Assembly (NCBI GenBank): GCA_000165345.1
Contig: CM000436.1
Span: 128,001 to 192,000, forward strand
Direction: 5' to 3'
DNA: 64,000 bases
Shown: positions 37,295-64,000 of the stretch, piece after piece
Numbering within the stretch: position 1 is the first letter of the stretch
Layout: each line of letters opens with the position of its first letter
Notes under the pieces: model-generated
What the model saw: only the letters and a program-made list of their open reading frames with translations
What the model was told of the DNA's origin: nothing
The model's database searches: none
Program-made: the position numbers and the translations under genes

Positions 37295-40200
37295 TTATGA
37301 TCTTAAGTTTTGTGTACAATAATTAACCAAAGCTACTAAGGCAGCTACTACTTTCTCCATGTTACTGATATTTTTCTGATTAACTTGAGAGGACTTGCAT
37401 ATAAAACAATTATTACACATTCCTCCACTAATGCTACTCACTTTTTGATTTGTAACTAAACATTTTCCAGATCCTCTTACAAATTTATCTAATGATTTTA
37501 AATTGGTTAAATCTGCTTCTGAAGCTTTAAGTAAGAGTTTCATAAGTTCTAAAACTTCTCTTTTGCAACCATCTTTGATTGAGAGTGAGTATTTTTCGAT
37601 GGTTTTTATAGAGATTTTTGATACATCCAAATTTTTTGTATCTAATGTTCCATTTGAATTAAACCTTAATTGGACTTGTTGGCCACCTGACGAAGTAGAT
37701 ATTTGTGGCTTTGGCTGTGGGTATGACGGTGGTTTTTGATATGGTGGTGGTATTTGTGGCTTTGATGGTGGGTATGACGGTGGCTTTTGGTATGGTGGTG
37801 GTATTTGTGGCTTTGGCTGTGGGTATGATGGTGGTTTTTGGTATGGTGGTGGTATTTGTGGCTTCGGTTGTGGGTATGACGGTGGCTTTTGATATGGCGG
37901 TGGCATTTGTGGCTTTGATGGTGGGTATGACGGTGGTTTTTGTGCTAATGGATCATCCGAAGGCATTAATCCTAAATTTGATTTTCCGATACCATCTTCC
38001 AGCAATCTGATTAGTTCTGACTTACTATGATTTACAGAATCAAATAATTCTTGTAAATTTTTAGTATCACCGCTCAAAGAAATATATTCTAAGTATTTTC
38101 CATAAACCTCTTTATCATTTGTCAAGTCTTCAACAGCTGATCTTTTTTTTCTTTTGATTTTAGTTCCCGGCAAAATAGGTACTTTTGGTCTAACAGCAGG
38201 ATCTGGCATTCCGTTTTTTTTTGTTGATACGCCAAATGAAGATGGTATGTTTTTAATAGAAGCTGGTGTTTTTCTCTTCTTTTCCCTTGATTCTTGATGA
38301 TTCTTTGCAATGGCTTCTTCCAAAGCTTCCAAAAGAGCTTCCTTACTATCATTTCCAGTCATTTGTATGAAATCAGCCAAATTTAAAGGTGAATCAGAAG
38401 ATGAGACTGTCCCTACATATTCTAAATACTTTTCTGTAACTTTCTCATCAACTTGCATGTAGTCGTATCCGGAACCAACGCCCCAGCCTCCCTCAGCTCC
38501 TCCGACTGCACCTCCCTCAGCTCCTCCAGTTGCACCTCCCTCAGCTCCTCCGACTGCACCTCCCTCAGCTCCTCCGACTGCACCTCCCCCAGCTCCTCCG
38601 ACTGCACCTCCCTCAGCTCCTCCGACTACACCTCCCTCAGCTCCTCCAGTTGCACCTCCCCCAGCTCCTCCACTCGCTCCAGCTCCTCCACCTACTCCTG
38701 CTCCTCCACCTACTCCTGCTCCTCCACTTGCACCTCCCTCAGCTCCACCACCTGCTAAACTTTGGCTATATTCACCCAGCATACTTAATAAAGCAGCTTT
38801 GTCATAGCCTGAAGCCTTAATCAACTCTTCCAAACTTAAAGAATTTCCTTGTACAATAGACATGTATGCAGCATAAGCCATTAAAACTTCTTCATCACTT
38901 TTAAGCGTACTAAGTAAATCTATTCCAACTTCTGCTCCTTCACCACCTCCACCTCCACCTCCACTAGCTGTGCTAAATAAATTTTGGATAAGCTCACGCA
39001 TTAAATTTAATAAGTAATCCTTATCATAATTTGAAATTTTAATCAAATATTTCAAATCTAAAGGATTTTCTACAGAAGAAGAATATAAATTATAAGTTTC
39101 TATAATTGCTTTATCTGCTAAGAAAACTTCAGCTAAATCAAGAACTTGTTCAGCTTTATCTTCTCGTTTCTTTTGTTCAGAAGGATCAACTGTTGATTGA
39201 GTTTCATTTTTTAAGTTTTGGATAAATATTTTTAAATAATCAACTATGCCATATTTTTCTTCCTTAGCTAAACCCTTAATCTCTTCCAAACTTAAAGCCG
39301 GCTCATCCTTAGTTAAACTTAAATAAACTCCATATAAATTCATTACTTCTTCATCATCTTCATTTGTTCCTTCTCCTCCTCCTGTTACTGCTACACCTCC
39401 TTCTATTCCGCCTGCTGATACAGGCTCATCATGTTGATAATTTTTATCTAAACTATGCTTGAAAAATTGTTTCATTTTACTATTAAACTGATCAATTTCA
39501 TCTTTAGTCACTTCCATACTTGATATAAGATTTCCTAAAGCACCTAAAATACGATTGTACAAACTATAATTAACATATTTTAGTTTGATAAATTCCTTGC
39601 ATATATCAAATAATATTTTACTTCTACGAATTGCTGCTTTATGTACCAAAATTTCTTTCTTTAAAATTTTATCTTCTTTTAGCTTATTAATAGCTTTGTT
39701 CTTCAGTTTTTCTTTTAAGCTAATTAATTTATTCCATTGTTCTCTTAAAGTACTTTCTATTTGTGTTAGATTCAAATCATTACAAATAAATGGAAAATTT
39801 CCCAAATCAAGTAATGATGGATGTATTAACTTTTTAATTGACAATTCTTCTCCAGAAAGATCAGAAATATGTTCCCAAGACGATCTATATTTATTCTTTT
39901 CTTTACAATTTTTCAAAAGATCATTTAATCTTTCCAAAATATCTAAAAATATATTTGAAAGTAAATTTTTTTTTAATATGCTTTCTCTGTAACAATAACT
40001 TTTATTATTTGCTCTGCCAATAGAAGAATTTAATCTAACCAATAATTCCGAAATTGTTGAAATTCTTCGATGAATTAGTAATATCAACTCTGAATTACAT
40101 CCTTCTAAATATTTTACTGCATATTCCACTTCCTTTGGTAATAAAAGTGACTTTAATTCTAGAGCTAAAGATTGAATATTTCTGTTTAAATCGCATCTTA

Positions 40201-43200
40201 AAAGTGTTACTAAATTTAAATGATCTAAAATTACATTTTCTGGAGGAGCTTCAATTAATAAATTTATTGGATAATTTCCTTCATCACCATCTCCTCCGCC
40301 AGATCCACTTGGAACTGTTGGTTCGTTTGAAACTGTTGGTTTGTTTGGAATTGTTGGTTTGTTTGGAACTGTCGGTTTGTTTGGAACTGTCGGTTCGTTT
40401 GGAACTGTTGGTTCATTTGGAACTATTGGTTTGTTTGGAACTGTTGGTTTGTTTGGAAATGTCGGTTCGTTTGGAATTGTTGGTTTGCTTGGAAACGTTG
40501 GTAATACTGGTACACCTCCTGGTATTCCACTTGGTCTTCCTGATGATCCAGGCCAAGCTGGAATTGTTGGTTTCCCTGGGGCTCCTGCTCCTGCTCCTGC
40601 TCCTGCTTCTGGTCCTGGTCCTGGTCCTGCTCCTGCTTCTGGTCCTGGTCCTGGTCCTGCTCCTGCTTCTGGTCCTGGTCCTGGTCCTGCTTCTGGTCCT
40701 GGTCCTGGTCCTGCTTCTGGTCCCGGTCCTGCTCCTGCTCCTGGAGAAGATTCTTCAGAATCAAAGAATGAAGAATCATCCACTGAAGAAACATCAGTTA
40801 AAGGAGGAACAAACCCTCCAGAAAGAGTTGAGAAAGAGCAACTCTGTGTTGGAATAAATTTAGGACTCATAATATCAACTGGTACAAACAAACCATGACC
40901 ACTAGCACTTTTATAAGCACTTGGAGATTTCAATTCACTCGTAAGTTTATACAACTCAAGCAAAAGCTTCAAAAACTCAGCAGAAAATATATACTTTTGA
41001 GCTTTAAACATGCTATTACTACTCAAGAAACTTGTATGTTGCAAACCCGTATCAGCTGAACTACTTATATTATTCTTTTCTACATTCAACCCAGAAATAG
41101 TTCGTACTTCTAAAATCTTCTTTAACAACTTCTCGAGAAATTCAACCAACTTATTAATACTCGGAGTCAAAATAGAAAAGTCTTCATAAACGAATGAAGA
41201 AACTAATCCCATAGTTAATTGATATATAGACAAATCTTTCAATTCTGATCCTCTTGTAGTTGTACTTCCATCCAAAGATTGAATTGCTGTCTCCAATAAT
41301 CCTTCATATTCTAACTTTGCTTTACAATCATTTATAACTTTAAGAAGTTCTTCTAATAAACCAGGAATAAAACTTGACAAAACCGTATAATTATTTGCAT
41401 GTTTTTTATCAAGTTTTTTCCCATTTTCCAATATCACTTCTAATTGCAAATATCTATAATATAATAATGCCAATACCAAACTGTGACACTTTTGATTACC
41501 TTCCACCAACTTTGCGTCATTATTCACTAACTGAGTAAGTGTACTCTTATCAATTGATTTAACTTTTATATTAAACTTCATGGGTGGTTTAATCTCTTTT
41601 GTTTTTACCATATGCATTGTTAAAAGAGCTGTTAACAAACTTAATTGAAATTTTAATGAAAAAAATTGTAAATTATATTGCTCTCTCGATTCAGGACTTT
41701 GAATTTGTTTCAATTTGTTTAATATATATTCAAAAGTTTTTAAAAGTTGCAAAATTCTTTCTAGTAACATTAAAATCATATTAGTAGTAAGATTTTTTGC
41801 AAGATTTGTTTGATCTGATATTGAAAACCATCTAAATAATACTTTAAGTGAAGATAAATCATCTGTTTCGTAATAATCTCTTGGTAATCTTGATACAACT
41901 GGAAACAAATTTTCATCAAAATCAAGATTCAAATTTTCATTATTTACAGTAAATCTTAATTCAACACATTTTCTATATACAAATTGTAAAACTGGTTGAA
42001 TTTGGCTGTATATTGCCCTAAACCTAATAAATTTATCATTTTCCACAGTAACTCCTGTTGTAGTTGTTTGTGTTTGACCATTTAAATTTTCGAATAATTT
42101 CTTTAATGGTATTTTATTAAATTCCTTAAATTTTTCCAATTCTTTTTTAAGCATTTCAAAACTAACTGCTTGACATATTTGAGGTAAAGCCGTTGTTATA
42201 AAACTATTTCTCTTTTCATCATAAAAGCAAAGCATCTGCAAAACTTCAGTAAATAATATGGATTTATTCAATATAGCTAAAGTATTTTTAAGTATCATAA
42301 TTCTCTGATCTAAGAAATTATCAGTATTTTTTAAATAATCCAAAATTTTCTTTTCAGATTCTAATTGATTTAGAATTACTGTTCTTTTGTAAAAATGTGA
42401 CTTTAAAGTCTTTTGAATCTTTTCAATTTGGATTTGAAACGAATCATTCAAACATTTTTTAAAATCAAAATTAATTAAAGCTTCCAATACTTGTGAAATT
42501 GAAGTTAATAATTTATCTGTAAACAAAATAAGAGTTTTTGGCTGAAAATAACTAATTACCAAATTTTTAGGATCAAGTTCTCTTTATTTTTGAGTTTGAA
42601 TATATAGTTCGTGTTTATTCATAGGTAATCGACTTGCATCCTTTAATCTTTGAATTCGTCGTTTTTCTCTAGCATGAGCCTTTTGCTTACGTCTCATTTG
42701 CAAATTATCTAGATCTTGTTGTGATCTACCAGAATAAGGACTTGTAAATGGTCTATACATGACATCTTCATTAGCTACTTTTCCAGTAAGAATATCCTTT
42801 CTATATTTGCATTTATCAAGTTTAAGTTGATATTTAACAATCCTAGAAGCAAGTTCTTTCATTTGTAAGTACAACCTTTTAATGGCATTAGCTCTTTTAT
42901 CACATACTTCGCATCTATTTCCTTTTTGTTTTTTAATATTAGGATTATGGCACGTATGACTATCATAATTGCTTTTAAGAATTTTGGAATTATCTTTAAT
43001 TTTATTAAATTCAGCAGTCAATTTTTCGATTTTTGACTCCAATTGAGCTATTAAAATTCTTATTTCATTTAACGGAATATTGCTTAAAGTCCAATGTGTA
43101 ATTTCATTTTCTATTGTTAATTTAGAATTCTGGCTAAATCCTGGAAATTTTAAATAACATAACTCACTTATAATGATATTGGATTTATTATTAAGAAAGA

Positions 43201-45255: not shown

Positions 45256-48200
45256 TTATCTTGAGTTTTTTTTACAATATTCAACCAAAACTTCCAATGC
45301 AGCTACTATTTTCTCCATATTTCTGACATTTCTATTATTAACTCTAGAGGAGTTACATACAAAACAATTATTGCATGTTCCTCCACTTCCTGACCTTTGA
45401 TCTGTATTTAAACATCTTGCTGATCCTTTTAAAAATCGTTCCAATGACTTTAAATTATTTAAATCTGCTATTGAAACTTTGAGTAAATGTAATAAAAGAT
45501 TTAAAGTAGCATTTGAACAACCACTTCTAACTGAATTTGAATGTTTTTCAATGGTTTTTGTGGAAATACTTGATGTATCTAAATTAGTTTTATCTAATGT
45601 TCCATTAGGATTAAACTTTAATTGAACTTTGTGCGAACCAATGATTGAAGTCGGTATTTGTGATGGTTGTGATGGTTGTGACGGTTGTGGATATGCTGGT
45701 GGTTGAGGATATGCCGGTGGTTGTGATGGTTGTGGGTACCTTGGTGGCTGCGGATATGCCGGTGGTTGTGATGGTTGTGGGTACCTTGGTGGTTGCGGAT
45801 ATGGAGGCGGCTTTGATGGCTGTGGATATGCTGGTGGTTGAGGATATGCTGGTGGCTGTGATGGTTTTGAAGTTGATCGTGGTGGACGTGGCTTCGGCTG
45901 TGATGGACCAAATGAAGATAATATATCATTGATAGAGGAAGGCGCTGGTTTTCTTTTTGGTATTTCTGTTCTTGAAGCTTGATTATTCGTTTCAATAGCT
46001 TGTTGTAAAATTTGTAAAAGAGTTTCTTTATTTTGATTTCCTGGCATATCTATGAAATCAATCAAATCTAAAGGAGTATTTGGAGGCACTACTGATCTTA
46101 CATAATCTAAATAGTATTTCAATACAACTTCATCATTTAATAAGAGCCTGCTTTCATCATCCAAAGCTTCTCCTCCTTCTGCTCCTCCACTTGCTCCTGC
46201 TCCTCCACTTGCTCCTGCTCCCCCACCTGCTCCTGCTCCTCCACCTGCTCCTGCTCCTCCACCTGCTCCGCCTCCATAAACATTCCCTGTAGAATTTGTA
46301 TTATATTCACTTAAAATATCCAATAAAGTATTTTTATCGTAACCTGCAACTTCAATTAATTCTTTCAAACTCAAGGATTGTTTTACCATAGAAACATACA
46401 AAGCATAAGCTTCTAATACTTGTTCATCTGACATAAGAGCATTAATTAAACTTGATGCACTTGTTCCTTCTTCACCTTCATTATCATTTCTTCCTGGTGT
46501 TTCTCCATTTGTGTTATTATTTTGTGAAGTTTTGATAAATTCAATCATTAAAGATAATAAGTAACTTTTATCGTAACTTGAAAGTTCGATCAAATCTTCT
46601 AAATTTGAAGGATTCTCAACAACGGAAGAATATAAAGCATAAGTTTCCAAAACTTGTTGGTCATTTATTATAGATGAAACGATGTTATTAGTTGATTGAA
46701 CCCCATTTTTTAAGCTTTGAACAATATTTTTTAAATATTCAGATAAACTTTGCCCTTCTGCTGAAGCTAATTCCTTGATACTATTCAAACTTAAAGGCGC
46801 TTCACCAGTAGCTAAACTCAAATAAAATGCATATAAGTTTTGTATTTCTTCATCTTCATCAAGATTTTCTTCCTCCCCTGCTCCTCCACTTCCGCCTCCA
46901 CCTCCACTTCCGCCTCCACTTCCACTTCCGCCTCCACTTCCACCTCCACCAGCTCCTCCACTTCCACCTCCGCCTGCTCCTCCACCTCCGCCTGCTCCTC
47001 CACCTCCGCCTGCTCCTCCACCTCCACTTCCTCCTCCCGGCGTATATTCATCCAGATCTAACTTAAATAATCGCCTTATTTTATCATTAAGCTTATTAAC
47101 TTCAACGTTAGTTACTTTCATACTTGAATGAATATCTTTTAAAGCAGTTGAAACTTTATTAAATAAACTATTATTAACATATTGTAATTGCACAAATTCT
47201 TTACAAGCTTCAAGTAGTAATTTATTTCTTCTAACTGCTGCTTTATATATCAAAGTTTGTGTTTTTAAACTTTTAATATCTTTACTTTTGCTTACAATAC
47301 CCTTACTTTTAAGATTTTCTTTTAGATTTAATGTTTTATCCCATAATTTTTTTAAATAAATTTCTGCTTTTGGTAAATTTGAATCAACACAAGTAAATGG
47401 AAATCTTGCTAGTTTATTAAATGGTGGATATATTAAACTTTTAATTGAAGATTCTTCTCCCAAAAGACTAGTAATATGTTTCCAAGGCAATTTATATTTA
47501 TTCATTTCTTTACATTTATCTAAAATAGCATTTAATTTTCCCAAAATATCTAAAAATATATTTGAAAGTAAATTCCTCTTTAGTAAAGTTTCTTTGTAAC
47601 AAATACTTTTAGTATGTTTTATACTTGCACCATCAGAAGAACTTAATCTATTTATTAATTCCATTACTGTTGAAATTCTTTGATTTATAAGCAATAATAA
47701 TCCTAAATCACATCCTTGTAAATATCTTATTGCATATTCAACTTTTTTTGGTAATAACATTGATTTTAATTTCTCTGTCAAAGTTTGAATACTTCCTTCA
47801 AAATCACATCTCAAAATTACTGATAAATCCAAATTGTTCAAAATTTCAGATTCTGCATCAACTCCTTGAATTGTTACATCTATTGGATAATTTTGTGGAT
47901 CCTCTTCATTCTCATCATTTCCTATTCCAGACCCACCCGGTCTTTCTGGCCAACCTCCTCCACCACCACCTGCTCCACCGCTTGACCCTGGTAGTCCACT
48001 CCCTCCTGATTGACTTGGCATTTCTGGTTGAGTTGGTATTCCTGGTTGAGTTGGTATTCCTGGTTGAGTACCTGGAAATGCTGGAGCTCCTGGTCGAGTT
48101 GGCTTTCCACCAAATCCTTGAGCCCCTGGTAATACTGGCACTCCCCCAGGCACAGCAATAGGCTTTGATGCTTCTTGCCCACCTGGTCCGCTTGGAACTC

Positions 48201-48714
48201 CTGGTTTTGTTGTTCCTCCTGGCATTGCTGGTCCACTTGTTCCTCCTGGCATTCCTGGCCAACTTGGAACTACTGGTTTTGCTGGTCCACTTGGTCCTCC
48301 TGGTGTTGCTGGTCCTCCTGGCATTGCTGGTCCACTTGGTCCTCCTGGTATTCCTGGTCCTCCTGGTGTTCCTGGTCCTCCTGGTATTCCTGGTCCTCCC
48401 AGAACTCCTAAAATCAAATCTCCCGACGAACTAAATATTTCTGTAAAATCATTTGAATCTGAAAATAAATCAAAACCATATAATTGTTGTTCTGGTAATA
48501 TACCATTCTCCAATGGAAATGGAGGAAAAACAAATTCCATCAATTTTGGGAATAAATTCCAATTCATTGTCAAAAAATGTGGTTCTCCTTTATTTTCTAA
48601 TGAATTATATAATGTTAAAATTCCAAATCTAAAGCAATATTTTATTAATCCATGATAAACCTTACTTAAAGTTGATATTAAACTCATTTCATTCATACTT
48701 TGTTTATCTTTCAA
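45256..48714 (-). CDS. family member B of the same giant secreted modular repeat protein family; the 5' end is incomplete and continues into low-quality sequence and the gap
   Basis: The track ORF of 1152 aa stops at TAA 45256–45258. It shares domain order and many blocks with member A: the central domain ([32 protein letters not shown]..), the helical motifs, and the C-terminal 4-Cys domain (..[60 protein letters not shown]). Its repeat units differ from A: [12 protein letters not shown] runs, [11 protein letters not shown] 11-mers, and an N-terminal Gly-X-Pro tract. Upstream of 48714 the frame continues with A-like sequence (..NLRSRETSNDIFGG.. compared with ..ILEVRTISGLNVEKNNISS..) but is broken by n calls. 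The true start is therefore not in readable sequence. Confidence 0.55.
45650..45870. repeat. coding minisatellite with a 33-bp unit (ggttgtgatggttgtgggtaccttggtggctgcggatatgccggt type), encoding [11 protein letters not shown]-type 11-mers in member B
   Basis: The tandem reiteration is visible in the sequence. Confidence 0.75.
46170..47045. repeat. Gly/Ala/Ser-rich coding microsatellite blocks in member B (46170–46275 gctcctgctcctccacctgct units; 46880–47040 ccgcctccacttccacctcc units), separated by unique helical-motif coding sequence
   Basis: This is read directly. The units encode GGAGGGG and [12 protein letters not shown] runs. Confidence 0.7.
47930..48415. repeat. cctggt-based imperfect repeats encoding a Gly-X-Pro and (Ser/Ala)-X-Pro triplet tract ([42 protein letters not shown]...) near the readable N-terminus of member B
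   Basis: The tract consists of reiterated cctggtcctcctggt(a/g)ttcctggt units, with Pro at every third residue over about 45 codons. Confidence 0.7.
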
Positions 48715-49980
48715 ATTTTTTATTTCCTCTTTTCTTTCTTGAATTTTNTCCANTNNTGTACTGTAAATTCTTCAAAAATCTTCTTCTGNACATATATTTT
48801 GGNNCTATCTTCTCTTTTATTAAATAATTTTNTAAAACATTATCAATATGTATTATGTATTATTACTACTACTACCACCAAAAATATCATTACTTGTTTC
48901 TCTTGATCTTAAATTTAATTCATTCAACACTTCATTATTAATATTCAAATTTGAACTTTCTTTTGTTATNATTTTNTGAAATTGTTGTACGGAAAATCTC
49001 CTCTTTTAAAGGGTCATATGCTGATATTTGTCCNAAACCNTTATAATATTCAATTNTTCTCACACAACCNAATATTCCTGATGCANGAATAATCTANAGC
49101 TAAACTAANTCCAATCAATNNCTGATATTAATGTATAATAATTACAATTATTACNACNCTCTTNNATATNCCATCATGNAANGTGACTTGNNNTTCTCAT
49201 TCATACTTGAAACTGAATTTACATNCATTNATTCATNAAATNTACTTTCAAATNCTTGNCAATGNTGNNNCTATATGTTAATGNCTTAATAATTGATAAT
49301 TANNATAATNACNAGNTAATAAATGTCCAAATAAATTAATACCTGATGTNAAATCATAAANCATNTTATTTGATNTNTGTGATNCTAGAGATAAACCTTG
49401 TAATACAAATCTTGAAAAATNTTGTANTGAANGTAANATACTTTTGTGTCCAATATATATTTCATTAAATATTGTAATAGNCNTTTNCACATCTTTTAAT
49501 ANTATCTNGCTAANNATAATNATAAAGCTTCAATTATTANTAAAGTTCTNTACTGCTTCTTTTTTGNNATAGAATATTCACTTGAAACAANTTCTGGTGA
49601 TTNGAANTCCATAAAAGTATCCAATGNCTTACGTTTTTTTATTCTATCCCTTATTNATGNNAAAGANTNTATATGAGATTTTAATANNGATATATTAATA
49701 CTTGTACACATCGGGTAAACCTGCTAAATTTATTGCAAGATGATTTATTAGTGTATCTAANAATNTGGACAGATATGTATTCATTGTGTTGAATAATCAT
49801 ATTAATTCATCTGATANCAAATTATTNGNCCNTAAANGATCTTTCATGAAAGCCTTATCATAATCTGTTCTACGTTATTTTCAAACTGGACCATTTGNAC
49901 TAAATCATGNCCANTATTAAAGATTAGTAANNATTATCATCATCGNAGNCATTTTGAANAACCCANCCCCANCTGNCCCT

Positions 49981-52900
49981 NNANNNNNNNNNNNNNNNNN
50001 NNNNNNNNNNNNNNNNNNNNNNNNNNNNNNNNNNNNNNNNNNNNNNNNNNNNNNNNNNNNNNNNNNNNNNNNNNNNNNNNNNNNNNNNNNNNNNNNNNNN
50101 NNNNNNNNNNNNNNNNNNNNNNNNNNNNNNNNNNNNNNNNNNNNNNNNNNNNNNNNNNNNNNNNNNNNNNNNNNNNNNNNNNNNNNNNNNNNNNNNNNNN
50201 NNNNNNNNNNNNNNNNNNNNNNNNNNNNNNNNNNNNNNNNNNNNNNNNNNNNNNNNNNNNNNNNNNNNNNNNNNNNNNNNNNNNNNNNNNNNNNNNNNNN
50301 NNNNNNNNNNNNNNNNNNNNNNNNNNNNNNNNNNNNNNNNNNNNNNNNNNNNNNNNNNNNNNNNNNNNNNNNNNNNNNNNNNNNNNNNNNNNNNNNNNNN
50401 NNNNNNNNNNNNNNNNNNNNNNNNNNNNNNNNNNNNNNNNNNNNNNNNNNNNNNNNNNNNNNNNNNNNNNNNNNNNNNNNNNNNNNNNNNNNNNNNNNNN
50501 NNNNNNNNNNNNNNNNNNNNNNNNNNNNNNNNNNNNNNNNNNNNNNNNNNNNNNNNNNNNNNNNNNNNNNNNNNNNNNNNNNNNNNNNNNNNNNNNNNNN
50601 NNNNNNNNNNNNNNNNNNNNNNNNNNNNNNNNNNNNNNNNNNNNNNNNNNNNNNNNNNNNNNNNNNNNNNNNNNNNNNNNNNNNNNNNNNNNNNNNNNNN
50701 NNNNNNNNNNNNNNNNNNNNNNNNNNNNNNNNNNNNNNNNNNNNNNNNNNNNNNNNNNNNNNNNNNNNNNNNNNNNNNNNNNNNNNNNNNNNNNNNNNNN
50801 NNNNNNNNNNNNNNNNNNNNNNNNNNNNNNNNNNNNNNNNNNNNNNNNNNNNNNNNNNNNNNNNNNNNNNNNNNNNNNNNNNNNNNNNNNNNNNNNNNNN
50901 NNNNNNNNNNNNNNNNNNNNNNNNNNNNNNNNNNNNNNNNNNNNNNNNNNNNNNNNNNNNNNNNNNNNNNNNNNNNNNNNNNNNNNNNNNNNNNNNNNNN
51001 NNNNNNNNNNNNNNNNNNNNNNNNNNNNNNNNNNNNNNNNNNNNNNNNNNNNNNNNNNNNNNNNNNNNNNNNNNNNNNNNNNNNNNNNNNNNNNNNNNNN
51101 NNNNNNNNNNNNNNNNNNNNNNNNNNNNNNNNNNNNNNNNNNNNNNNNNNNNNNNNNNNNNNNNNNNNNNNNNNNNNNNNNNNNNNNNNNNNNNNNNNNN
51201 NNNNNNNNNNNNNNNNNNNNNNNNNNNNNNNNNNNNNNNNNNNNNNNNNNNNNNNNNNNNNNNNNNNNNNNNNNNNNNNNNNNNNNNNNNNNNNNNNNNN
51301 NNNNNNNNNNNNNNNNNNNNNNNNNNNNNNNNNNNNNNNNNNNNNNNNNNNNNNNNNNNNNNNNNNNNNNNNNNNNNNNNNNNNNNNNNNNNNNNNNNNN
51401 NNNNNNNNNNNNNNNNNNNNNNNNNNNNNNNNNNNNNNNNNNNNNNNNNNNNNNNNNNNNNNNNNNNNNNNNNNNNNNNNNNNNNNNNNNNNNNNNNNNN
51501 NNNNNNNNNNNNNNNNNNNNNNNNNNNNNNNNNNNNNNNNNNNNNNNNNNNNNNNNNNNNNNNNNNNNNNNNNNNNNNNNNNNNNNNNNNNNNNNNNNNN
51601 NNNNNNNNNNNNNNNNNNNNNNNNNNNNNNNNNNNNNNNNNNNNNNNNNNNNNNNNNNNNNNNNNNNNNNNNNNNNNNNNNNNNNNNNNNNNNNNNNNNN
51701 NNNNNNNNNNNNNNNNNNNNNNNNNNNNNNNNNNNNNNNNNNNNNNNNNNNNNNNNNNNNNNNNNNNNNNNNNNNNNNNNNNNNNNNNNNNNNNNNNNNN
51801 NNNNNNNNNNNNNNNNNNNNNNNNNNNNNNNNNNNNNNNNNNNNNNNNNNNNNNNNNNNNNNNNNNNNNNNNNNNNNNNNNNNNNNNNNNNNNNNNNNNN
51901 NNNNNNNNNNNNNNNNNNNNNNNNNNNNNNNNNNNNNNNNNNNNNNNNNNNNNNNNNNNNNNNNNNNNNNNNNNNNNNNNNNNNNNNNNNNNNNNNNNNN
52001 NNNNNNNNNNNNNNNNNNNNNNNNNNNNNNNNNNNNNNNNNNNNNNNNNNNNNNNNNNNNNNNNNNNNNNNNNNNNNNNNNNNNNNNNNNNNNNNNNNNN
52101 NNNNNNNNNNNNNNNNNNNNNNNNNNNNNNNNNNNNNNNNNNNNNNNNNNNNNNNNNNNNNNNNNNNNNNNNNNNNNNNNNNNNNNNNNNNNNNNNNNNN
52201 NNNNNNNNNNNNNNNNNNNNNNNNNNNNNNNNNNNNNNNNNNNNNNNNNNNNNNNNNNNNNNNNNNNNNNNNNNNNNNNNNNNNNNNNNNNNNNNNNNNN
52301 NNNNNNNNNNNNNNNNNNNNNNNNNNNNNNNNNNNNNNNNNNNNNNNNNNNNNNNNNNNNNNNNNNNNNNNNNNNNNNNNNNNNNNNNNNNNNNNNNNNN
52401 NNNNNNNNNNNNNNNNNNNNNNNNNNNNNNNNNNNNNNNNNNNNNNNNNNNNNNNNNNNNNNNNNNNNNNNNNNNNNNNNNNNNNNNNNNNNNNNNNNNN
52501 NNNNNNNNNNNNNNNNNNNNNNNNNNNNNNNNNNNNNNNNNNNNNNNNNNNNNNNNNNNNNNNNNNNNNNNNNNNNNNNNNNNNNNNNNNNNNNNNNNNN
52601 NNNNNNNNNNNNNNNNNNNNNNNNNNNNNNNNNNNNNNNNNNNNNNNNNNNNNNNNNNNNNNNNNNNNNNNNNNNNNNNNNNNNNNNNNNNNNNNNNNNN
52701 NNNNNNNNNNNNNNNNNNNNNNNNNNNNNNNNNNNNNNNNNNNNNNNNNNNNNNNNNNNNNNNNNNNNNNNNNNNNNNNNNNNNNNNNNNNNNNNNNNNN
52801 NNNNNNNNNNNNNNNNNNNNNNNNNNNNNNNNNNNNNNNNNNNNNNNNNNNNNNNNNNNNNNNNNNNNNNNNNNNNNNNNNNNNNNNNNNNNNNNNNNNN

Positions 52901-55900
52901 NNNNNNNNNNNNNNNNNNNNNNNNNNNNNNNNNNNNNNNNNNNNNNNNNNNNNNNNNNNNNNNNNNNNNNNNNNNNNNNNNNNNNNNNNNNNNNNNNNNN
53001 NNNNNNNNNNNNNNNNNNNNNNNNNNNNNNNNNNNNNNNNNNNNNNNNNNNNNNNNNNNNNNNNNNNNNNNNNNNNNNNNNNNNNNNNNNNNNNNNNNNN
53101 NNNNNNNNNNNNNNNNNNNNNNNNNNNNNNNNNNNNNNNNNNNNNNNNNNNNNNNNNNNNNNNNNNNNNNNNNNNNNNNNNNNNNNNNNNNNNNNNNNNN
53201 NNNNNNNNNNNNNNNNNNNNNNNNNNNNNNNNNNNNNNNNNNNNNNNNNNNNNNNNNNNNNNNNNNNNNNNNNNNNNNNNNNNNNNNNNNNNNNNNNNNN
53301 NNNNNNNNNNNNNNNNNNNNNNNNNNNNNNNNNNNNNNNNNNNNNNNNNNNNNNNNNNNNNNNNNNNNNNNNNNNNNNNNNNNNNNNNNNNNNNNNNNNN
53401 NNNNNNNNNNNNNNNNNNNNNNNNNNNNNNNNNNNNNNNNNNNNNNNNNNNNNNNNNNNNNNNNNNNNNNNNNNNNNNNNNNNNNNNNNNNNNNNNNNNN
53501 NNNNNNNNNNNNNNNNNNNNNNNNNNNNNNNNNNNNNNNNNNNNNNNNNNNNNNNNNNNNNNNNNNNNNNNNNNNNNNNNNNNNNNNNNNNNNNNNNNNN
53601 NNNNNNNNNNNNNNNNNNNNNNNNNNNNNNNNNNNNNNNNNNNNNNNNNNNNNNNNNNNNNNNNNNNNNNNNNNNNNNNNNNNNNNNNNNNNNNNNNNNN
53701 NNNNNNNNNNNNNNNNNNNNNNNNNNNNNNNNNNNNNNNNNNNNNNNNNNNNNNNNNNNNNNNNNNNNNNNNNNNNNNNNNNNNNNNNNNNNNNNNNNNN
53801 NNNNNNNNNNNNNNNNNNNNNNNNNNNNNNNNNNNNNNNNNNNNNNNNNNNNNNNNNNNNNNNNNNNNNNNNNNNNNNNNNNNNNNNNNNNNNNNNNNNN
53901 NNNNNNNNNNNNNNNNNNNNNNNNNNNNNNNNNNNNNNNNNNNNNNNNNNNNNNNNNNNNNNNNNNNNNNNNNNNNNNNNNNNNNNNNNNNNNNNNNNNN
54001 NNNNNNNNNNNNNNNNNNNNNNNNNNNNNNNNNNNNNNNNNNNNNNNNNNNNNNNNNNNNNNNNNNNNNNNNNNNNNNNNNNNNNNNNNNNNNNNNNNNN
54101 NNNNNNNNNNNNNNNNNNNNNNNNNNNNNNNNNNNNNNNNNNNNNNNNNNNNNNNNNNNNNNNNNNNNNNNNNNNNNNNNNNNNNNNNNNNNNNNNNNNN
54201 NNNNNNNNNNNNNNNNNNNNNNNNNNNNNNNNNNNNNNNNNNNNNNNNNNNNNNNNNNNNNNNNNNNNNNNNNNNNNNNNNNNNNNNNNNNNNNNNNNNN
54301 NNNNNNNNNNNNNNNNNNNNNNNNNNNNNNNNNNNNNNNNNNNNNNNNNNNNNNNNNNNNNNNNNNNNNNNNNNNNNNNNNNNNNNNNNNNNNNNNNNNN
54401 NNNNNNNNNNNNNNNNNNNNNNNNNNNNNNNNNNNNNNNNNNNNNNNNNNNNNNNNNNNNNNNNNNNNNNNNNNNNNNNNNNNNNNNNNNNNNNNNNNNN
54501 NNNNNNNNNNNNNNNNNNNNNNNNNNNNNNNNNNNNNNNNNNNNNNNNNNNNNNNNNNNNNNNNNNNNNNNNNNNNNNNNNNNNNNNNNNNNNNNNNNNN
54601 NNNNNNNNNNNNNNNNNNNNNNNNNNNNNNNNNNNNNNNNNNNNNNNNNNNNNNNNNNNNNNNNNNNNNNNNNNNNNNNNNNNNNNNNNNNNNNNNNNNN
54701 NNNNNNNNNNNNNNNNNNNNNNNNNNNNNNNNNNNNNNNNNNNNNNNNNNNNNNNNNNNNNNNNNNNNNNNNNNNNNNNNNNNNNNNNNNNNNNNNNNNN
54801 NNNNNNNNNNNNNNNNNNNNNNNNNNNNNNNNNNNNNNNNNNNNNNNNNNNNNNNNNNNNNNNNNNNNNNNNNNNNNNNNNNNNNNNNNNNNNNNNNNNN
54901 NNNNNNNNNNNNNNNNNNNNNNNNNNNNNNNNNNNNNNNNNNNNNNNNNNNNNNNNNNNNNNNNNNNNNNNNNNNNNNNNNNNNNNNNNNNNNNNNNNNN
55001 NNNNNNNNNNNNNNNNNNNNNNNNNNNNNNNNNNNNNNNNNNNNNNNNNNNNNNNNNNNNNNNNNNNNNNNNNNNNNNNNNNNNNNNNNNNNNNNNNNNN
55101 NNNNNNNNNNNNNNNNNNNNNNNNNNNNNNNNNNNNNNNNNNNNNNNNNNNNNNNNNNNNNNNNNNNNNNNNNNNNNNNNNNNNNNNNNNNNNNNNNNNN
55201 NNNNNNNNNNNNNNNNNNNNNNNNNNNNNNNNNNNNNNNNNNNNNNNNNNNNNNNNNNNNNNNNNNNNNNNNNNNNNNNNNNNNNNNNNNNNNNNNNNNN
55301 NNNNNNNNNNNNNNNNNNNNNNNNNNNNNNNNNNNNNNNNNNNNNNNNNNNNNNNNNNNNNNNNNNNNNNNNNNNNNNNNNNNNNNNNNNNNNNNNNNNN
55401 NNNNNNNNNNNNNNNNNNNNNNNNNNNNNNNNNNNNNNNNNNNNNNNNNNNNNNNNNNNNNNNNNNNNNNNNNNNNNNNNNNNNNNNNNNNNNNNNNNNN
55501 NNNNNNNNNNNNNNNNNNNNNNNNNNNNNNNNNNNNNNNNNNNNNNNNNNNNNNNNNNNNNNNNNNNNNNNNNNNNNNNNNNNNNNNNNNNNNNNNNNNN
55601 NNNNNNNNNNNNNNNNNNNNNNNNNNNNNNNNNNNNNNNNNNNNNNNNNNNNNNNNNNNNNNNNNNNNNNNNNNNNNNNNNNNNNNNNNNNNNNNNNNNN
55701 NNNNNNNNNNNNNNNNNNNNNNNNNNNNNNNNNNNNNNNNNNNNNNNNNNNNNNNNNNNNNNNNNNNNNNNNNNNNNNNNNNNNNNNNNNNNNNNNNNNN
55801 NNNNNNNNNNNNNNNNNNNNNNNNNNNNNNNNNNNNNNNNNNNNNNNNNNNNNNNNNNNNNNNNNNNNNNNNNNNNNNNNNNNNNNNNNNNNNNNNNNNN

Positions 55901-58900
55901 NNNNNNNNNNNNNNNNNNNNNNNNNNNNNNNNNNNNNNNNNNNNNNNNNNNNNNNNNNNNNNNNNNNNNNNNNNNNNNNNNNNNNNNNNNNNNNNNNNNN
56001 NNNNNNNNNNNNNNNNNNNNNNNNNNNNNNNNNNNNNNNNNNNNNNNNNNNNNNNNNNNNNNNNNNNNNNNNNNNNNNNNNNNNNNNNNNNNNNNNNNNN
56101 NNNNNNNNNNNNNNNNNNNNNNNNNNNNNNNNNNNNNNNNNNNNNNNNNNNNNNNNNNNNNNNNNNNNNNNNNNNNNNNNNNNNNNNNNNNNNNNNNNNN
56201 NNNNNNNNNNNNNNNNNNNNNNNNNNNNNNNNNNNNNNNNNNNNNNNNNNNNNNNNNNNNNNNNNNNNNNNNNNNNNNNNNNNNNNNNNNNNNNNNNNNN
56301 NNNNNNNNNNNNNNNNNNNNNNNNNNNNNNNNNNNNNNNNNNNNNNNNNNNNNNNNNNNNNNNNNNNNNNNNNNNNNNNNNNNNNNNNNNNNNNNNNNNN
56401 NNNNNNNNNNNNNNNNNNNNNNNNNNNNNNNNNNNNNNNNNNNNNNNNNNNNNNNNNNNNNNNNNNNNNNNNNNNNNNNNNNNNNNNNNNNNNNNNNNNN
56501 NNNNNNNNNNNNNNNNNNNNNNNNNNNNNNNNNNNNNNNNNNNNNNNNNNNNNNNNNNNNNNNNNNNNNNNNNNNNNNNNNNNNNNNNNNNNNNNNNNNN
56601 NNNNNNNNNNNNNNNNNNNNNNNNNNNNNNNNNNNNNNNNNNNNNNNNNNNNNNNNNNNNNNNNNNNNNNNNNNNNNNNNNNNNNNNNNNNNNNNNNNNN
56701 NNNNNNNNNNNNNNNNNNNNNNNNNNNNNNNNNNNNNNNNNNNNNNNNNNNNNNNNNNNNNNNNNNNNNNNNNNNNNNNNNNNNNNNNNNNNNNNNNNNN
56801 NNNNNNNNNNNNNNNNNNNNNNNNNNNNNNNNNNNNNNNNNNNNNNNNNNNNNNNNNNNNNNNNNNNNNNNNNNNNNNNNNNNNNNNNNNNNNNNNNNNN
56901 NNNNNNNNNNNNNNNNNNNNNNNNNNNNNNNNNNNNNNNNNNNNNNNNNNNNNNNNNNNNNNNNNNNNNNNNNNNNNNNNNNNNNNNNNNNNNNNNNNNN
57001 NNNNNNNNNNNNNNNNNNNNNNNNNNNNNNNNNNNNNNNNNNNNNNNNNNNNNNNNNNNNNNNNNNNNNNNNNNNNNNNNNNNNNNNNNNNNNNNNNNNN
57101 NNNNNNNNNNNNNNNNNNNNNNNNNNNNNNNNNNNNNNNNNNNNNNNNNNNNNNNNNNNNNNNNNNNNNNNNNNNNNNNNNNNNNNNNNNNNNNNNNNNN
57201 NNNNNNNNNNNNNNNNNNNNNNNNNNNNNNNNNNNNNNNNNNNNNNNNNNNNNNNNNNNNNNNNNNNNNNNNNNNNNNNNNNNNNNNNNNNNNNNNNNNN
57301 NNNNNNNNNNNNNNNNNNNNNNNNNNNNNNNNNNNNNNNNNNNNNNNNNNNNNNNNNNNNNNNNNNNNNNNNNNNNNNNNNNNNNNNNNNNNNNNNNNNN
57401 NNNNNNNNNNNNNNNNNNNNNNNNNNNNNNNNNNNNNNNNNNNNNNNNNNNNNNNNNNNNNNNNNNNNNNNNNNNNNNNNNNNNNNNNNNNNNNNNNNNN
57501 NNNNNNNNNNNNNNNNNNNNNNNNNNNNNNNNNNNNNNNNNNNNNNNNNNNNNNNNNNNNNNNNNNNNNNNNNNNNNNNNNNNNNNNNNNNNNNNNNNNN
57601 NNNNNNNNNNNNNNNNNNNNNNNNNNNNNNNNNNNNNNNNNNNNNNNNNNNNNNNNNNNNNNNNNNNNNNNNNNNNNNNNNNNNNNNNNNNNNNNNNNNN
57701 NNNNNNNNNNNNNNNNNNNNNNNNNNNNNNNNNNNNNNNNNNNNNNNNNNNNNNNNNNNNNNNNNNNNNNNNNNNNNNNNNNNNNNNNNNNNNNNNNNNN
57801 NNNNNNNNNNNNNNNNNNNNNNNNNNNNNNNNNNNNNNNNNNNNNNNNNNNNNNNNNNNNNNNNNNNNNNNNNNNNNNNNNNNNNNNNNNNNNNNNNNNN
57901 NNNNNNNNNNNNNNNNNNNNNNNNNNNNNNNNNNNNNNNNNNNNNNNNNNNNNNNNNNNNNNNNNNNNNNNNNNNNNNNNNNNNNNNNNNNNNNNNNNNN
58001 NNNNNNNNNNNNNNNNNNNNNNNNNNNNNNNNNNNNNNNNNNNNNNNNNNNNNNNNNNNNNNNNNNNNNNNNNNNNNNNNNNNNNNNNNNNNNNNNNNNN
58101 NNNNNNNNNNNNNNNNNNNNNNNNNNNNNNNNNNNNNNNNNNNNNNNNNNNNNNNNNNNNNNNNNNNNNNNNNNNNNNNNNNNNNNNNNNNNNNNNNNNN
58201 NNNNNNNNNNNNNNNNNNNNNNNNNNNNNNNNNNNNNNNNNNNNNNNNNNNNNNNNNNNNNNNNNNNNNNNNNNNNNNNNNNNNNNNNNNNNNNNNNNNN
58301 NNNNNNNNNNNNNNNNNNNNNNNNNNNNNNNNNNNNNNNNNNNNNNNNNNNNNNNNNNNNNNNNNNNNNNNNNNNNNNNNNNNNNNNNNNNNNNNNNNNN
58401 NNNNNNNNNNNNNNNNNNNNNNNNNNNNNNNNNNNNNNNNNNNNNNNNNNNNNNNNNNNNNNNNNNNNNNNNNNNNNNNNNNNNNNNNNNNNNNNNNNNN
58501 NNNNNNNNNNNNNNNNNNNNNNNNNNNNNNNNNNNNNNNNNNNNNNNNNNNNNNNNNNNNNNNNNNNNNNNNNNNNNNNNNNNNNNNNNNNNNNNNNNNN
58601 NNNNNNNNNNNNNNNNNNNNNNNNNNNNNNNNNNNNNNNNNNNNNNNNNNNNNNNNNNNNNNNNNNNNNNNNNNNNNNNNNNNNNNNNNNNNNNNNNNNN
58701 NNNNNNNNNNNNNNNNNNNNNNNNNNNNNNNNNNNNNNNNNNNNNNNNNNNNNNNNNNNNNNNNNNNNNNNNNNNNNNNNNNNNNNNNNNNNNNNNNNNN
58801 NNNNNNNNNNNNNNNNNNNNNNNNNNNNNNNNNNNNNNNNNNNNNNNNNNNNNNNNNNNNNNNNNNNNNNNNNNNNNNNNNNNNNNNNNNNNNNNNNNNN

Positions 58901-59983: not shown

Positions 59984-60302
59984 ATAAACTCGACCTAACA
60001 ACATATACCCCNAAGGTCCGTGAAAGCCATAACCTTAATGTAGGTACCCTTTCCAAGGTAACCTGGAATACTTTGGAATCATAATTTAATTAGTAATTCC
60101 CCCAAAATAAAACTATTTGTTAATATCTGGAGTTAACTTAACTAAATCATCTTGATAAAATGAAGAAATTAATCCCATTGGTTAATTGATATAAAGATAA
60201 ATCTTTTAAATCTGATTTATTACTTTTATCATCCAATAATTTTATTAAATCTAATATTGGATCCAATTTTAATCTTGATTCACAATCTGTTCATATCTCT
60301 GT

Positions 60303-62249
60303 TCAATTCTGTTTTAATAAATTTGCTATATAAGTTTGATCATCATTTTTTCCATGATTTTTCTTATAAAATCTTCTACCATTCTCTAAAATTAAATCTA
60401 ATTGTAAATGTCTATAATATAATAATGATAATAAAGTTTGATTACATGTTTTTTGTTTTGTACTATTAATCAATTTTAAATCATTACTTATTAATTGATT
60501 AAGTGAATCTTTATCAGTTGATTTAATCTTAGTCTTAAATTGTTTAGATGTTATTGTTATTTCTTTTGTTTTAATCATATGCATTGTTAAAATACTCATT
60601 AATTTATTTAATTGGAATTTTAATTCTGAACATTTTAATATATATTGATTTCTTGTTTCAATCTTTGTTATATTTTTTATTTTATTTAATATATATCTAT
60701 ATATCTTTAAAAAATCTAAAATCTTTTCTAATATAACTAAAATCATATTCATACTAAGATTATTTGCAAGATTGATTTGATTTGATGATGAAAACCATAT
60801 AATAAAGTCATTAAATGATAATGAATCAATAGCTTTTGTATAATATTCTTGTGGAAATCTTGAAACAATAGGAAATAAAAATTCATCAAAATCAAGATTT
60901 AAATCTTCATTATTTACAGTAAATCTTAATTCAACACATTTTTTATATATAAATTGTAATAATGGCCAAATTTGATTATGTATTGCTTTAAATTTATTAT
61001 ATACATCTTTATCCATATTAATTTCTGTTGAAGAAATTTTTAATTGTTGATTAAAATTATCTAATAATCTCTTTATTGTTATATTATTAAATTGTTTAGA
61101 TAGATCTAATTCTTTTCTTAACATTAAAAAATTCTCTGATTCACATATTGTTGGTAATGATGATGATATAAAATTATTAGTTTTAAGATCATATAAACAA
61201 AGCGTTTGTAAAACTTGAGTATATAAGATTGATCTATTTAATATATTTAAAGTATTTTTTAAAATATTAATTCTTGTTTCTAAATATTGATCATTTTTTC
61301 CAGCAGAAGTTAAATTATCTTTCTCTGTTTGTAAATGATTTAAACTTGAAGTATTTTTCTCATAATGTGATTTTAAAGTTTTTTGTATTTTTTCAATTTT
61401 AATTTGGAATAAATCATCCAAACATTTTTTAAAATCAAATTGGATTAAATTTTCTAATACTTGTGAAATTATAATTAATAATTTATGTGTAAATAAAATA
61501 AGACTTTTTGGTTGAAAATAACTGATTACCAAAGTTTGAAAATCCATTTCTCTTTGTTTTTGAGATTGAATATATAGATTATGTTTATTATAAGTTAATA
61601 TACCAGAATTAACAGCATCTAATAATCTTTTATTTCTTCGTATTTCTCTTTCATGAGCTTTATCTTTACGTCTTTTTTGTAAATCAGCTTTTTCTTGTAA
61701 TGTTTTACCTTGATAATGAGTTGTGAAAGGTCTATACATAACTTCTTTTTCAACTTGTTCTCCTTTAAGAATACTTTTTCTATATTTACATTTATCAAGT
61801 TTAAGTTGATATGTAACAATTTTTGAAGCAAGTTCTTTCATTTTTAATTGTAATCTTTTAATAGCATTAGCTCTTTTTTCACATGTATTACATCTATTAC
61901 CTTTTTGTTTTTTAGTTCCTTCTTGTTGGCATTGATGTTTATCATAATTTTCTCGAATAGATTTAGAATTTGCTTTAAATTTATTGAATTCAGTTGTTAA
62001 TGTTTCAATTTCTGATTCTAATTGAGATATTAAATTTTCTATTTGAGATAATGGAACACTACTTAGAATCCAATGTGTAATTTCACTATTTATTGTTAAT
62101 TTAGGATTTTTGGTAAATCCTGGAAAATTTAGATAAGATGATTCAATAATGTTATTTAATTTATTATGAAGGAAAATTGAATTCTTTTCATTATTTACCA
62201 ATAATCCAATTAACAATAAAACTGTAAAATGTATCCATTTATTCATCAT
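60303..62249 (-). CDS. family member C (5' portion); an uninterrupted N-domain plus the start of the helical domain. The 3' portion is frameshifted near the contig edge and runs into the 10-kb gap.
   Basis: ATG is at 62247–62249, and the signal peptide is MMNKWIHFTVLLLIGLLVN. The first 230 aa are about 45–55% identical to A's N-terminal piece. The protein then continues in frame into the helical domain (VISYFQPKSLILFTHKLL..; A has VISYFQPKTLILFTDKLL..). Downstream of 60303, A-like coding continues in shifted frames (..YQLT / MGLISSFYQDDLVKLTPDINK..) until the N run begins at 59984. Confidence 0.55.
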   Translation of the reverse strand: MMNKWIHFTVLLLIGLLVNNEKNSIFLHNKLNNIIESSYLNFPGFTKNPKLTINSEITHWILSSVPLSQIENLISQLESEIETLTTEFNKFKANSKSIRENYDKHQCQQEGTKKQKGNRCNTCEKRANAIKRLQLKMKELASKIVTYQLKLDKCKYRKSILKGEQVEKEVMYRPFTTHYQGKTLQEKADLQKRRKDKAHEREIRRNKRLLDAVNSGILTYNKHNLYIQSQKQREMDFQTLVISYFQPKSLILFTHKLLIIISQVLENLIQFDFKKCLDDLFQIKIEKIQKTLKSHYEKNTSSLNHLQTEKDNLTSAGKNDQYLETRINILKNTLNILNRSILYTQVLQTLCLYDLKTNNFISSSLPTICESENFLMLRKELDLSKQFNNITIKRLLDNFNQQLKISSTEINMDKDVYNKFKAIHNQIWPLLQFIYKKCVELRFTVNNEDLNLDFDEFLFPIVSRFPQEYYTKAIDSLSFNDFIIWFSSSNQINLANNLSMNMILVILEKILDFLKIYRYILNKIKNITKIETRNQYILKCSELKFQLNKLMSILTMHMIKTKEITITSKQFKTKIKSTDKDSLNQLISNDLKLINSTKQKTCNQTLLSLLYYRHLQLDLILENGRRFYKKNHGKNDDQTYIANLLKQN

Positions 62250-63360: not shown

Positions 63361-64000
63361 TTAATTTTCTTCTAGAAAACCAAGTAACATTTGAATCAAA
63401 AGTTCTTTATCAAATCCTGAAGATTCGATCAATTGTTTTAAAGTGAGTGGTTCTTCAATTAATGACAAATATAATGAATACAAATTTTGAACTTCTGGAT
63501 CTTTTAAAAAGGACGAGTAATCGTTATTTTCTTGATTTGATTGAGAACTAATATTACTTATTGGCTTTGACTGAATTATTGGTAAATTAGGTTCTTCAGT
63601 TCCCTCTGTATAAATATCAGACAATAATACAATAGACGGACTATTAAAGCCACTGGACTCACCATATGCAGGGGCAGGGGTAGGAGTAGGGGTATAGACA
63701 GCTCCAACACCAGCACCAACACCAGTACCAGCATCAGCACCAGTACCAGCATCAGCACCAGTACCAACACCAGAACCAGTACCAACACCAGAACCAGTAC
63801 CAACACCAGCACCAGAAGCTCCAAGAGAAAATACTTGAGAAATTCTTGAATTGAACTGGCTGATTTGAAGATCGCTAATGACTAAGGAACTAAATAAATT
63901 TTCTAAAACATCCAATATATCAATTGTAATGTGTGAATTTAGTTGAAAATAATTTAAAAATTCTTCACAAATGGCTGTTAATTGTTCATTTCTAGTTATT
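63361..64000 (-). CDS. family member D (partial; continues beyond the window end). It has a Gly/Thr/Ala/Val-rich repeat and one ESSGFDK helical motif, then stops.
   Basis: The minus-strand frame is open from the window edge (ITRNEQLTAICEEFLNYFQ..) to TAA at 63361–63363. It encodes (GAGVGTGSGVGTG..GADAGTGADAGTG) repeats and DPEVQNLYSLYLSLIEEPLTLKQLIESSGFDKELLIQMLLGFLEEN. That segment matches the LSLEELIKASGYDKAALLSML motif of members A and B. No family-like coding follows the stop. Confidence 0.4.
   Translation of the reverse strand, partial: ITRNEQLTAICEEFLNYFQLNSHITIDILDVLENLFSSLVISDLQISQFNSRISQVFSLGASGAGVGTGSGVGTGSGVGTGADAGTGADAGTGVGAGVGAVYTPTPTPAPAYGESSGFNSPSIVLLSDIYTEGTEEPNLPIIQSKPISNISSQSNQENNDYSSFLKDPEVQNLYSLYLSLIEEPLTLKQLIESSGFDKELLIQMLLGFLEEN

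Follow-up and report, generated by a model that had tools for sequence, protein, structure and literature searches.

The genes studied here have been described before. In Cryptosporidium, cgd8_660_670 and cgd8_680_690 encode paralogous "large low-complexity proteins", and a 19,048-bp deletion removes cgd8_680/690 from C. hominis (PMC4407392, PMC4637869, PMC6532270, PMC7371110). The gene copy number of the family varies among species (PMC4407392, PMC6532270, PMC7371110), and its members are named in the literature as signal-peptide proteins or predicted mucins (PMC4407392, PMC6532270). The locus already serves to distinguish C. parvum from C. hominis, and it contains the antigen cgd8_700, antibodies to which have been linked to protection from reinfection (PMC10425216); O-glycosylation of these proteins is only predicted in the literature (PMC10425216). 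Current annotations of these genes read "large low-complexity proteins", "possible mucins" and even "putative Formin J". The accessible literature reports no binding partner, self-association or localisation for the family proteins, and the supplements of an oocyst-wall paper do not list the cgd8_660/680/700 genes. Nor does the accessible literature on these genes describe the repeated unit reported here; the genes and the locus are known, and the domain itself appears to be new and undescribed so far.

Organization of the locus and its gene models

The window, by which we mean the whole 64-kb stretch of DNA analysed, comes from chromosome 8 of Cryptosporidium parvum Iowa II; it has a base composition of 24-35% GC and a run of N at ~50001-59900. 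The family genes, referred to below as members A to D, were placed as follows.

37295..42562, minus strand: member A, cgd8_660, main ORF of 1755 codons
42584..43270, minus strand: cgd8_670, 228 aa, N-terminal piece with a signal peptide, in the same frame as cgd8_660
45256..48714, minus strand: member B, cgd8_680, the C-terminal 1152 codons of the ~3,228-aa cgd8_680_690 gene
60303..62249, minus strand: member C, cgd8_690, N-terminal part of cgd8_680_690 with a signal peptide; the N-gap lies between C and B
63361-63915, continuing beyond the window, minus strand: member D, cgd8_700, predicted mucin CpMuc8/Muc20

Exact C. parvum matches, alignments and the paralogy documented in the literature place the window proteins in the cgd8_660/680/700 family; the alignments comprised A and B together with C. 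ubiquitum, C. canis, C. meleagridis and P0053 proteins. Members A and B, tried with several start codons, gave no exact match in the protein collection. For eight ORFs of the window, exact counterparts were found among database proteins of C. parvum Iowa II and other C. parvum assemblies, including RFC1, CpTSP12, two alpha/beta hydrolases and a Ctf4/WD40 protein. The C. parvum assembly CP044415.1, which is gap-free, shows cgd8_690 and cgd8_680 as a single ORF, and joining this ORF to the N-terminus from the window yielded a cgd8_680_690 protein of ~3,228 residues. At the other gene pair, a TAA at 42584-42586 separates cgd8_670, which carries the signal peptide, from the in-frame cgd8_660; because this stop cuts off its signal peptide, the cgd8_660 copy may not be secreted.

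Proteins of the family range from 1,700 to ~3,200 aa and share one layout, in which a signal peptide is followed by an N-terminal Cys/coiled-coil region, then by helical regions and low-complexity tracts, a conserved Cys-containing alpha domain and finally the units. The 660 and 680_690 lineages have an extra C-terminal Cys-rich domain, and Cys-containing domains are found at the N-terminus, before the array and at the C-terminus. The N-terminal hydrophobic stretches are of the signal type, a search of the family proteins for an internal hydrophobic segment of transmembrane strength found none, and the proteins have no membrane anchor. Long Gly-, Pro/Tyr- and Thr/Pro-rich tracts are present, the last represented by PTVPNK repeats in A (detected by Tandem Repeats Finder) and by a T/S-rich stretch in P0058, the C. 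meleagridis cgd8_700 orthologue. Around the unit array of A, the following features were delineated.

39440..40240, minus strand: Cys-containing all-alpha domain, A aa ~775-1041, immediately upstream of the unit array
38465..38746, minus strand: Gly-rich linker (GGAEGGAV)n between A units 3 and 4, 94 aa, with 24/48-bp tandem repeats at 38487-38746 (Tandem Repeats Finder)
37700..37942, minus strand: Pro/Tyr-rich repeat (PPSYPQPKPQIPPPYQK)n between A unit 5 and the C-terminal domain, 51-bp period, 4.8 copies (Tandem Repeats Finder)
37298..37645, minus strand: C-terminal Cys-rich domain (CNNCFxC...YC), A aa ~1640-1755

The all-alpha domain before the array contains invariant Cys, Trp and Arg columns. 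The C-terminal Cys-rich domain is 59% identical between A and B, and it also occurs in the C. ubiquitum, C. canis and P0053 proteins.

A unit of about 55 residues recurs in tandem

When an HMM built from 21 units was run against the six-frame translation of the whole 64-kb window, exactly 10 units were found, all on the minus strand (five in A, four in B and one in D), each spanning 51-59 residues (~55); the same search returned no other match even at a domain E<=10.

39200..39367 (HMM match 39203-39361), minus strand: A unit 1, aa 1066-1121, HMM E ~1e-21
38978..39130 (HMM match 38978-39127), minus strand: A unit 2, aa 1145-1195, HMM E ~1e-21
38747..38911 (HMM match 38750-38911), minus strand: A unit 3, aa 1218-1272, HMM E=5e-24
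38288..38464 (HMM match 38291-38461), minus strand: A unit 4, aa 1367-1425, HMM E=7e-23
37970..38131 (HMM match 37976-38131), minus strand: A unit 5, aa 1478-1531, HMM E=1.6e-20
46702..46869 (HMM match 46705-46869), minus strand: B unit 1, by HMM
46513..46677 (HMM match 46516-46674), minus strand: B unit 2, by HMM
46282..46440 (HMM match 46285-46440), minus strand: B unit 3, by HMM
45976..46143 (HMM match 45979-46143), minus strand: B unit 4, by HMM
63364..63516 (HMM match 63364-63513), minus strand: single C-terminal unit of D (cgd8_700), HMM E ~2e-22

A unit 1 is a divergent "type 1" form (LYGxYLSL...PLSLEEI). The first-pass annotation of this DNA had quoted peptides for these repeats, and they sit where it placed them, the five of A mapping to 37991-39346 of the window on the minus strand. 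Its total of about 11 instances is reduced to 10 by the six-frame HMM search, and its estimate of four to five copies per protein holds for A and B, with D carrying a single copy. The HMM confirmed its observation that D ends in one unit (63364..63516), and the C. meleagridis orthologue P0058 ends likewise in one.

Several results speak to whether the repeat is real. An HMM trained on 8 units recovered two B units outside the training set (E=7.6e-11 and 1.4e-12), and HMMs built from one positional type (1, 2/3, 4 or 5) picked up the remaining types in register, scoring 12-31 bits, and hit nothing else in ~9,800 aa of family sequence. In the unit alignment, Y16 never varies, and conservation reaches 90% or more at D6, Y13 and L27; indels amount to just 1-3 residues and are located in the loop between helix 1 and helix 2 and in the turn between helix 2 and helix 3. 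The earlier proposal of a tandem motif with conserved spacing is thus borne out by the in-register cross-detection among types and by the 21-unit HMM, which yields only the 10 units in the window. Because the spacing is conserved and the types detect each other in register, the null of a merely compositional motif is refuted.

Furthermore, Tandem Repeats Finder reported the linkers as 18-51-bp minisatellites and did not report the units as DNA repeats; since it sees the linkers and not the units, we consider the units to be old, diverged duplications and the linkers to be recent expansions. The linkers are 22-94 aa long, of low complexity and different in length between paralogues, and much of the linker sequence of A and B is not alignable. 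They had been described as Gly-rich, which stood for three linkers of A (before unit 1, between units 2 and 3, and between units 3 and 4) and failed for the others, the linker between units 1 and 2 being charged and that between units 4 and 5 basic and Pro/Lys-rich.

The unit is predicted to fold as a three-helix bundle

AlphaFold2 modelled a single unit (A unit 3, with the ten window copies as its alignment) as a three-helix bundle with helices at residues 7-19, 27-33 and 38-53, at a pLDDT of 87.5 and a pTM of 0.71, bearing in mind that such confidence may be inflated for short helical sequences. In the predicted architecture, helix 1 would carry two stacked Tyr; a short Pro-Leu loop would lead from it to helix 2, which is short, and a tight Gly/Asp-Lys turn would then connect to helix 3, which is long. 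A second model covered A residues 745-1195 (451 residues, with five homologues in the alignment) and comprised, in order, the all-alpha domain (pLDDT 80-93), a Gly-rich linker (<50), unit 1, a linker (<50) and unit 2. The three helices of unit 1 were modelled at a pLDDT of 65-81 and those of unit 2 at 80-87, and unit 2 showed an additional N-terminal helix. Ordered units separated by disordered linkers fit beads on a string; the small helical module strung on linkers that was suggested from the letters alone is therefore supported at the level of the AlphaFold2 models. Collectively, our findings make it very probable that the unit is a real, autonomous three-helix domain family.

Distribution of the unit

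Subsequently, the unit profile was compared by HMMER with 1.84 billion (1.84e9) representative proteins. Nine proteins scored at E<=0.001: five Cryptosporidium family members, three artefacts and one weak resolvase match. The family members were the following.

C. ubiquitum cubi_03293: 4 units
C. canis protein of 2,810 aa: 4 units
C. meleagridis cgd8_700 orthologue: 1 unit
KAF7456826.1, "possible mucin" of 2,957 aa: 2 units
C. tyzzeri: fragment

The Dirofilaria protein P0051 and the repeat proteins P0054 and P0055 were discarded, their scores being sums of many partial matches of <10 bits. Within full-length cgd8_680_690, the units are confined to residues 2692-2988 of ~3,228, and the domain is therefore limited to the C-terminal fifth. 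As judged from sequence profiles, the domain is restricted to this part of one Cryptosporidium-only protein family.

Positional conservation and the proposed function

Across the 21 units, the conserved columns (D6, Y13, Y16, L27, K38 and L41) correspond to the hydrophobic core and helix caps, and the surfaces vary. When units from C. parvum, C. ubiquitum, C. canis and a fourth protein, P0053, are clustered, they sort by array position; for instance, A unit 4 clusters with B unit 4, C. ubiquitum unit 3 and C. canis unit 3. Because the units group by position across species, the array is older than the splits of these species. The clustering also identifies A unit 3 as a later copy of the unit-2 type, and the alignment of A with B shows unit 5 in A and missing from B; the number of units per protein ranges from 1 to 5. 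The family proteins evolve fast. The comparison of dN/dS between motif and linkers that the first-pass annotation had proposed gave, for A versus B, a modestly lower value in the units (0.58) than in the alignable linker (0.77), with the flanking domains at 0.63-0.68.

The best explanation overall, to which we assign a probability of roughly one half, is that the units are independently folding modules on secreted mucin-like giants and most likely serve as multivalent interaction sites. In the proposed mechanism, one to five three-helix copies would lie in the C-terminal fifth of giant secreted proteins, and the disordered low-complexity spacers between them would expand and contract as minisatellites. 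The bundles, set apart from one another, would make multivalent protein-protein contacts, be it with host, parasite or self; they would be carried on a flexible, probably O-glycosylated, secreted scaffold, in the manner of the tandem three-helix modules of bacterial surface proteins, and every array position would keep its own surface. A single ligand shared by all units is unlikely, since no surface patch is common to them. The assignment of the unit itself as an interaction module is tentative.

The serious one among the rival explanations holds that the bundles are passive beads that stiffen, space or elasticise a secreted, disulfide-linked matrix or mucin-like polymer, without a specific ligand, the polymer being held together through the Cys-rich domains at the N- and C-termini. 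Conservation across the full set of units is confined to core and helix-cap residues, dN/dS is high throughout, and the combination of terminal Cys-rich domains with long Gly/Pro/Thr-rich tracts recalls polymerising mucins or cell-wall proteins; the just modestly lower dN/dS in the units would also fit weakly constrained structural beads. Against such passivity, the columns outside the hydrophobic core are 38% identical between positional orthologues and 22% between units at different positions (core columns, 57% and 43%), and unit types come in the same order from species to species, which suggests position-specific roles, although shared ancestry alone could produce this pattern of positional conservation. 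On balance, we regard passive beads as unlikely.

A narrower form of the interaction reading, in which the units are genus-specific host-facing binding modules with position-specific specificities, is quite improbable as things stand. It would account for the link between cgd8_700 antibodies and protection. An additional paralogue present in C. parvum is absent from C. hominis and other species. If the units do face the host, unit number (1 to 5) and paralogue differences could influence host range or immune recognition.

The units might instead pack against one another, or against the all-alpha domain that precedes the array, to give a larger helical assembly, a reading in keeping with a family that is almost wholly alpha-helical and with the N-terminal helix gained by unit 2 in the longer model. 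The linkers, however, are low-complexity, variable in length between paralogues and predicted to be disordered over 22-94 aa, a single unit folds confidently alone in AlphaFold2, and unit number varies from 1 to 5, and we hold such docking to be more doubtful still.

The weak resolvase match raises the alternative that the unit is a degenerate tri-helical helix-turn-helix (HTH) domain that binds nucleic acid. The match lies in the tandem HTH repeats of a resolvase-like metagenomic protein (whole-protein E=7.9e-4; best stretch, 20 bits), and hhalign aligned this protein with the unit over 39 columns at 36% identity, spanning helix 1 and the helix 2-turn-helix 3 segment with its Gly turn; the hhalign probability, however, was just 13.9%, and Pfam scans of the 21 units gave no HTH family. 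Each of the 21 units is acidic (net charge -3 to -11, pI 4.05-4.7) and thus lacks a basic recognition surface, and the family proteins bear signal peptides; these two properties make a DNA-binding HTH very unlikely. Finally, that the motif is an artefact of composition or low complexity, or mere amphipathic-helix periodicity, is scarcely credible despite the strongly repetitive, low-complexity flanks, given the fixed spacing with its invariant Tyr, Asp and Leu positions, the unit types that find one another in register, a 64-kb six-frame translation free of further matches, the lack of a DNA repeat in the units and their retention in other species.

Significance

A discrete 55-residue foldable domain offers a first structural handle on the family. 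The unit supplies recombinant fragments of defined extent with which to map antibodies and screen for partners, and its profile can help to mend gene models that are fragmented. Should the modules bind host molecules, they would represent a new class of adhesin or effector element in Cryptosporidium.

Comparison with known families

The Pfam scan of whole proteins A-D and four homologues produced nothing near the cut-offs, and the scan of 21 single units revealed no recurrent family (best E=0.0029). A PDB sequence profile gave a marginal 29-residue match to a DJ-1/PfpI-type amidase (E=0.0015), which we judged to be due to chance. Homology to the staphylococcal protein A B/Z domain was rejected at an hhalign probability of 0.3%. 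The top-ranked Foldseek neighbours were three-helix modules of the protein A type, at non-significant values (E>3, TM 0.3-0.5). We class the unit as a new domain family whose three-helix-bundle fold is a generic one, analogous and not homologous to the tandem three-helix modules of bacterial surface proteins.

Among known systems, the Cryptosporidium mucin-like glycoproteins (GP900, GP60, Muc4/5) are comparable in that cgd8_660 and cgd8_700 are themselves annotated as predicted mucins, and in that both groups carry a signal peptide, are polymorphic and evolve fast. The unit, in contrast, is predicted to be a folded helical domain and not a Ser/Thr/Pro tract; no described Cryptosporidium mucin has been reported to contain it, and the unit-bearing family consists mainly of alpha-helical domains. 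The tri-helical HTH found at the C-terminus of serine recombinases and resolvases likewise has three helices with a tight Gly turn between helix 2 and helix 3, but the present units are acidic and occur in a secretory-pathway context, and the similarity is not significant. The modules of staphylococcal protein A (E, D, A, B, C; Z) and of other Gram-positive proteins differ in showing no sequence relationship to the unit, which occurs in a eukaryotic parasite and has no known ligand, and in their short linkers, compared with the long, disordered, low-complexity linkers of the Cryptosporidium family. They are likewise three-helix bundles of ~55-58 residues and, as in members A and B, are arranged in four to five tandem copies in a secreted or surface protein; by analogy, they may provide a plausible model for multivalent binding by the Cryptosporidium units.

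The gap within cgd8_680_690

The two parts of the paralogue, cgd8_690 (N-terminal) and cgd8_680 (C-terminal), are separated in the window by undetermined bases:

50001-59900: N run of ~10 kb between cgd8_680 and cgd8_690
48715-50000 and 59900-60300: many single Ns flanking the N run

The ~10-kb gap is a placeholder. In the gap-free assemblies used for comparison, L001 (CP141125.1) and L002 (CP044415.1), cgd8_690 and cgd8_680 lie ~4.3 kb apart, and therefore only ~2.6 kb of sequence is absent from the window. In L002 the two parts constitute a single ORF, encoding ~3,228 aa after joining of the N-terminus; a frame change was observed in L001 near locus position 2402.

Interruption and missing central residues in cgd8_660_670

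The signal-peptide piece cgd8_670 (228 aa) and the 1755-codon ORF of cgd8_660 are kept apart by a stop codon shared by the three C. parvum assemblies that were compared:

42584-42586, minus strand: in-frame TAA between cgd8_670 and cgd8_660

The paralogue cgd8_690 carries CAA (Gln) at the matching position, and the 5.3-kb ORF downstream of the TAA is otherwise stop-free. Behind this codon, cgd8_660 could be a recent pseudogene, or could depend on readthrough or on internal initiation without the signal peptide.

Additionally, the central helical region of cgd8_660_670 is missing ~1,240 residues (window 40300-40900 in member A, cgd8_660, versus 9-4577 in L001); the same residues are present in cgd8_680_690, the C. 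canis protein and P0053, another family protein. The breakpoint follows the conserved motif 'GGFVPPLTDxSSxDDSSFFDSEE' and falls within Gly/Pro tracts of low complexity.

Architecture of the cgd8_700 lineage

The central and pre-array domains of the family are shared by the cgd8_700 lineage (the C. meleagridis orthologue P0058 and the C. parvum gene at window 63361-64000), which carries a mucin-like Thr/Ser-rich stretch close to the N-terminus (P0058 aa ~120-150). At the C-terminus, a single unit is followed directly by the protein end, with neither the Pro-rich repeat nor the C-terminal Cys domain.

Linkers and repeats

One linker of member A contains a polybasic stretch:

~38140-38160 (A aa ~1468-1475): 'KIKRKKRS', unit 4-5 linker

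It matches the furin/subtilisin-type R-x-K/R-R pattern, as a candidate site, and was not found in member B (cgd8_680) or in the C. ubiquitum or C. canis proteins.

The formin label given to the family (PMC10888889) is probably a low-complexity, Pro-rich artefact; a Pfam scan detected no formin domain in any family member.

Behind the (PPSYPQPKPQIPPPYQK)n, (GGAEGGAV)n, (PTVPNK)n and (GPGPEA)n tracts lie minisatellites in the coding sequence, with a repeat period of 18-51 bp:

37700-37942, 38487-38746, 40309-40502, 40583-40744: coding minisatellites
45673-45866, 46170-46275, 46872-47037, 48183-48409: coding minisatellites

Long ORFs on the opposite strand over these arrays are by-products of the repeats. 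The Pro/Tyr repeat among them resembles the structural Pro-rich proteins of plants and of mussels.
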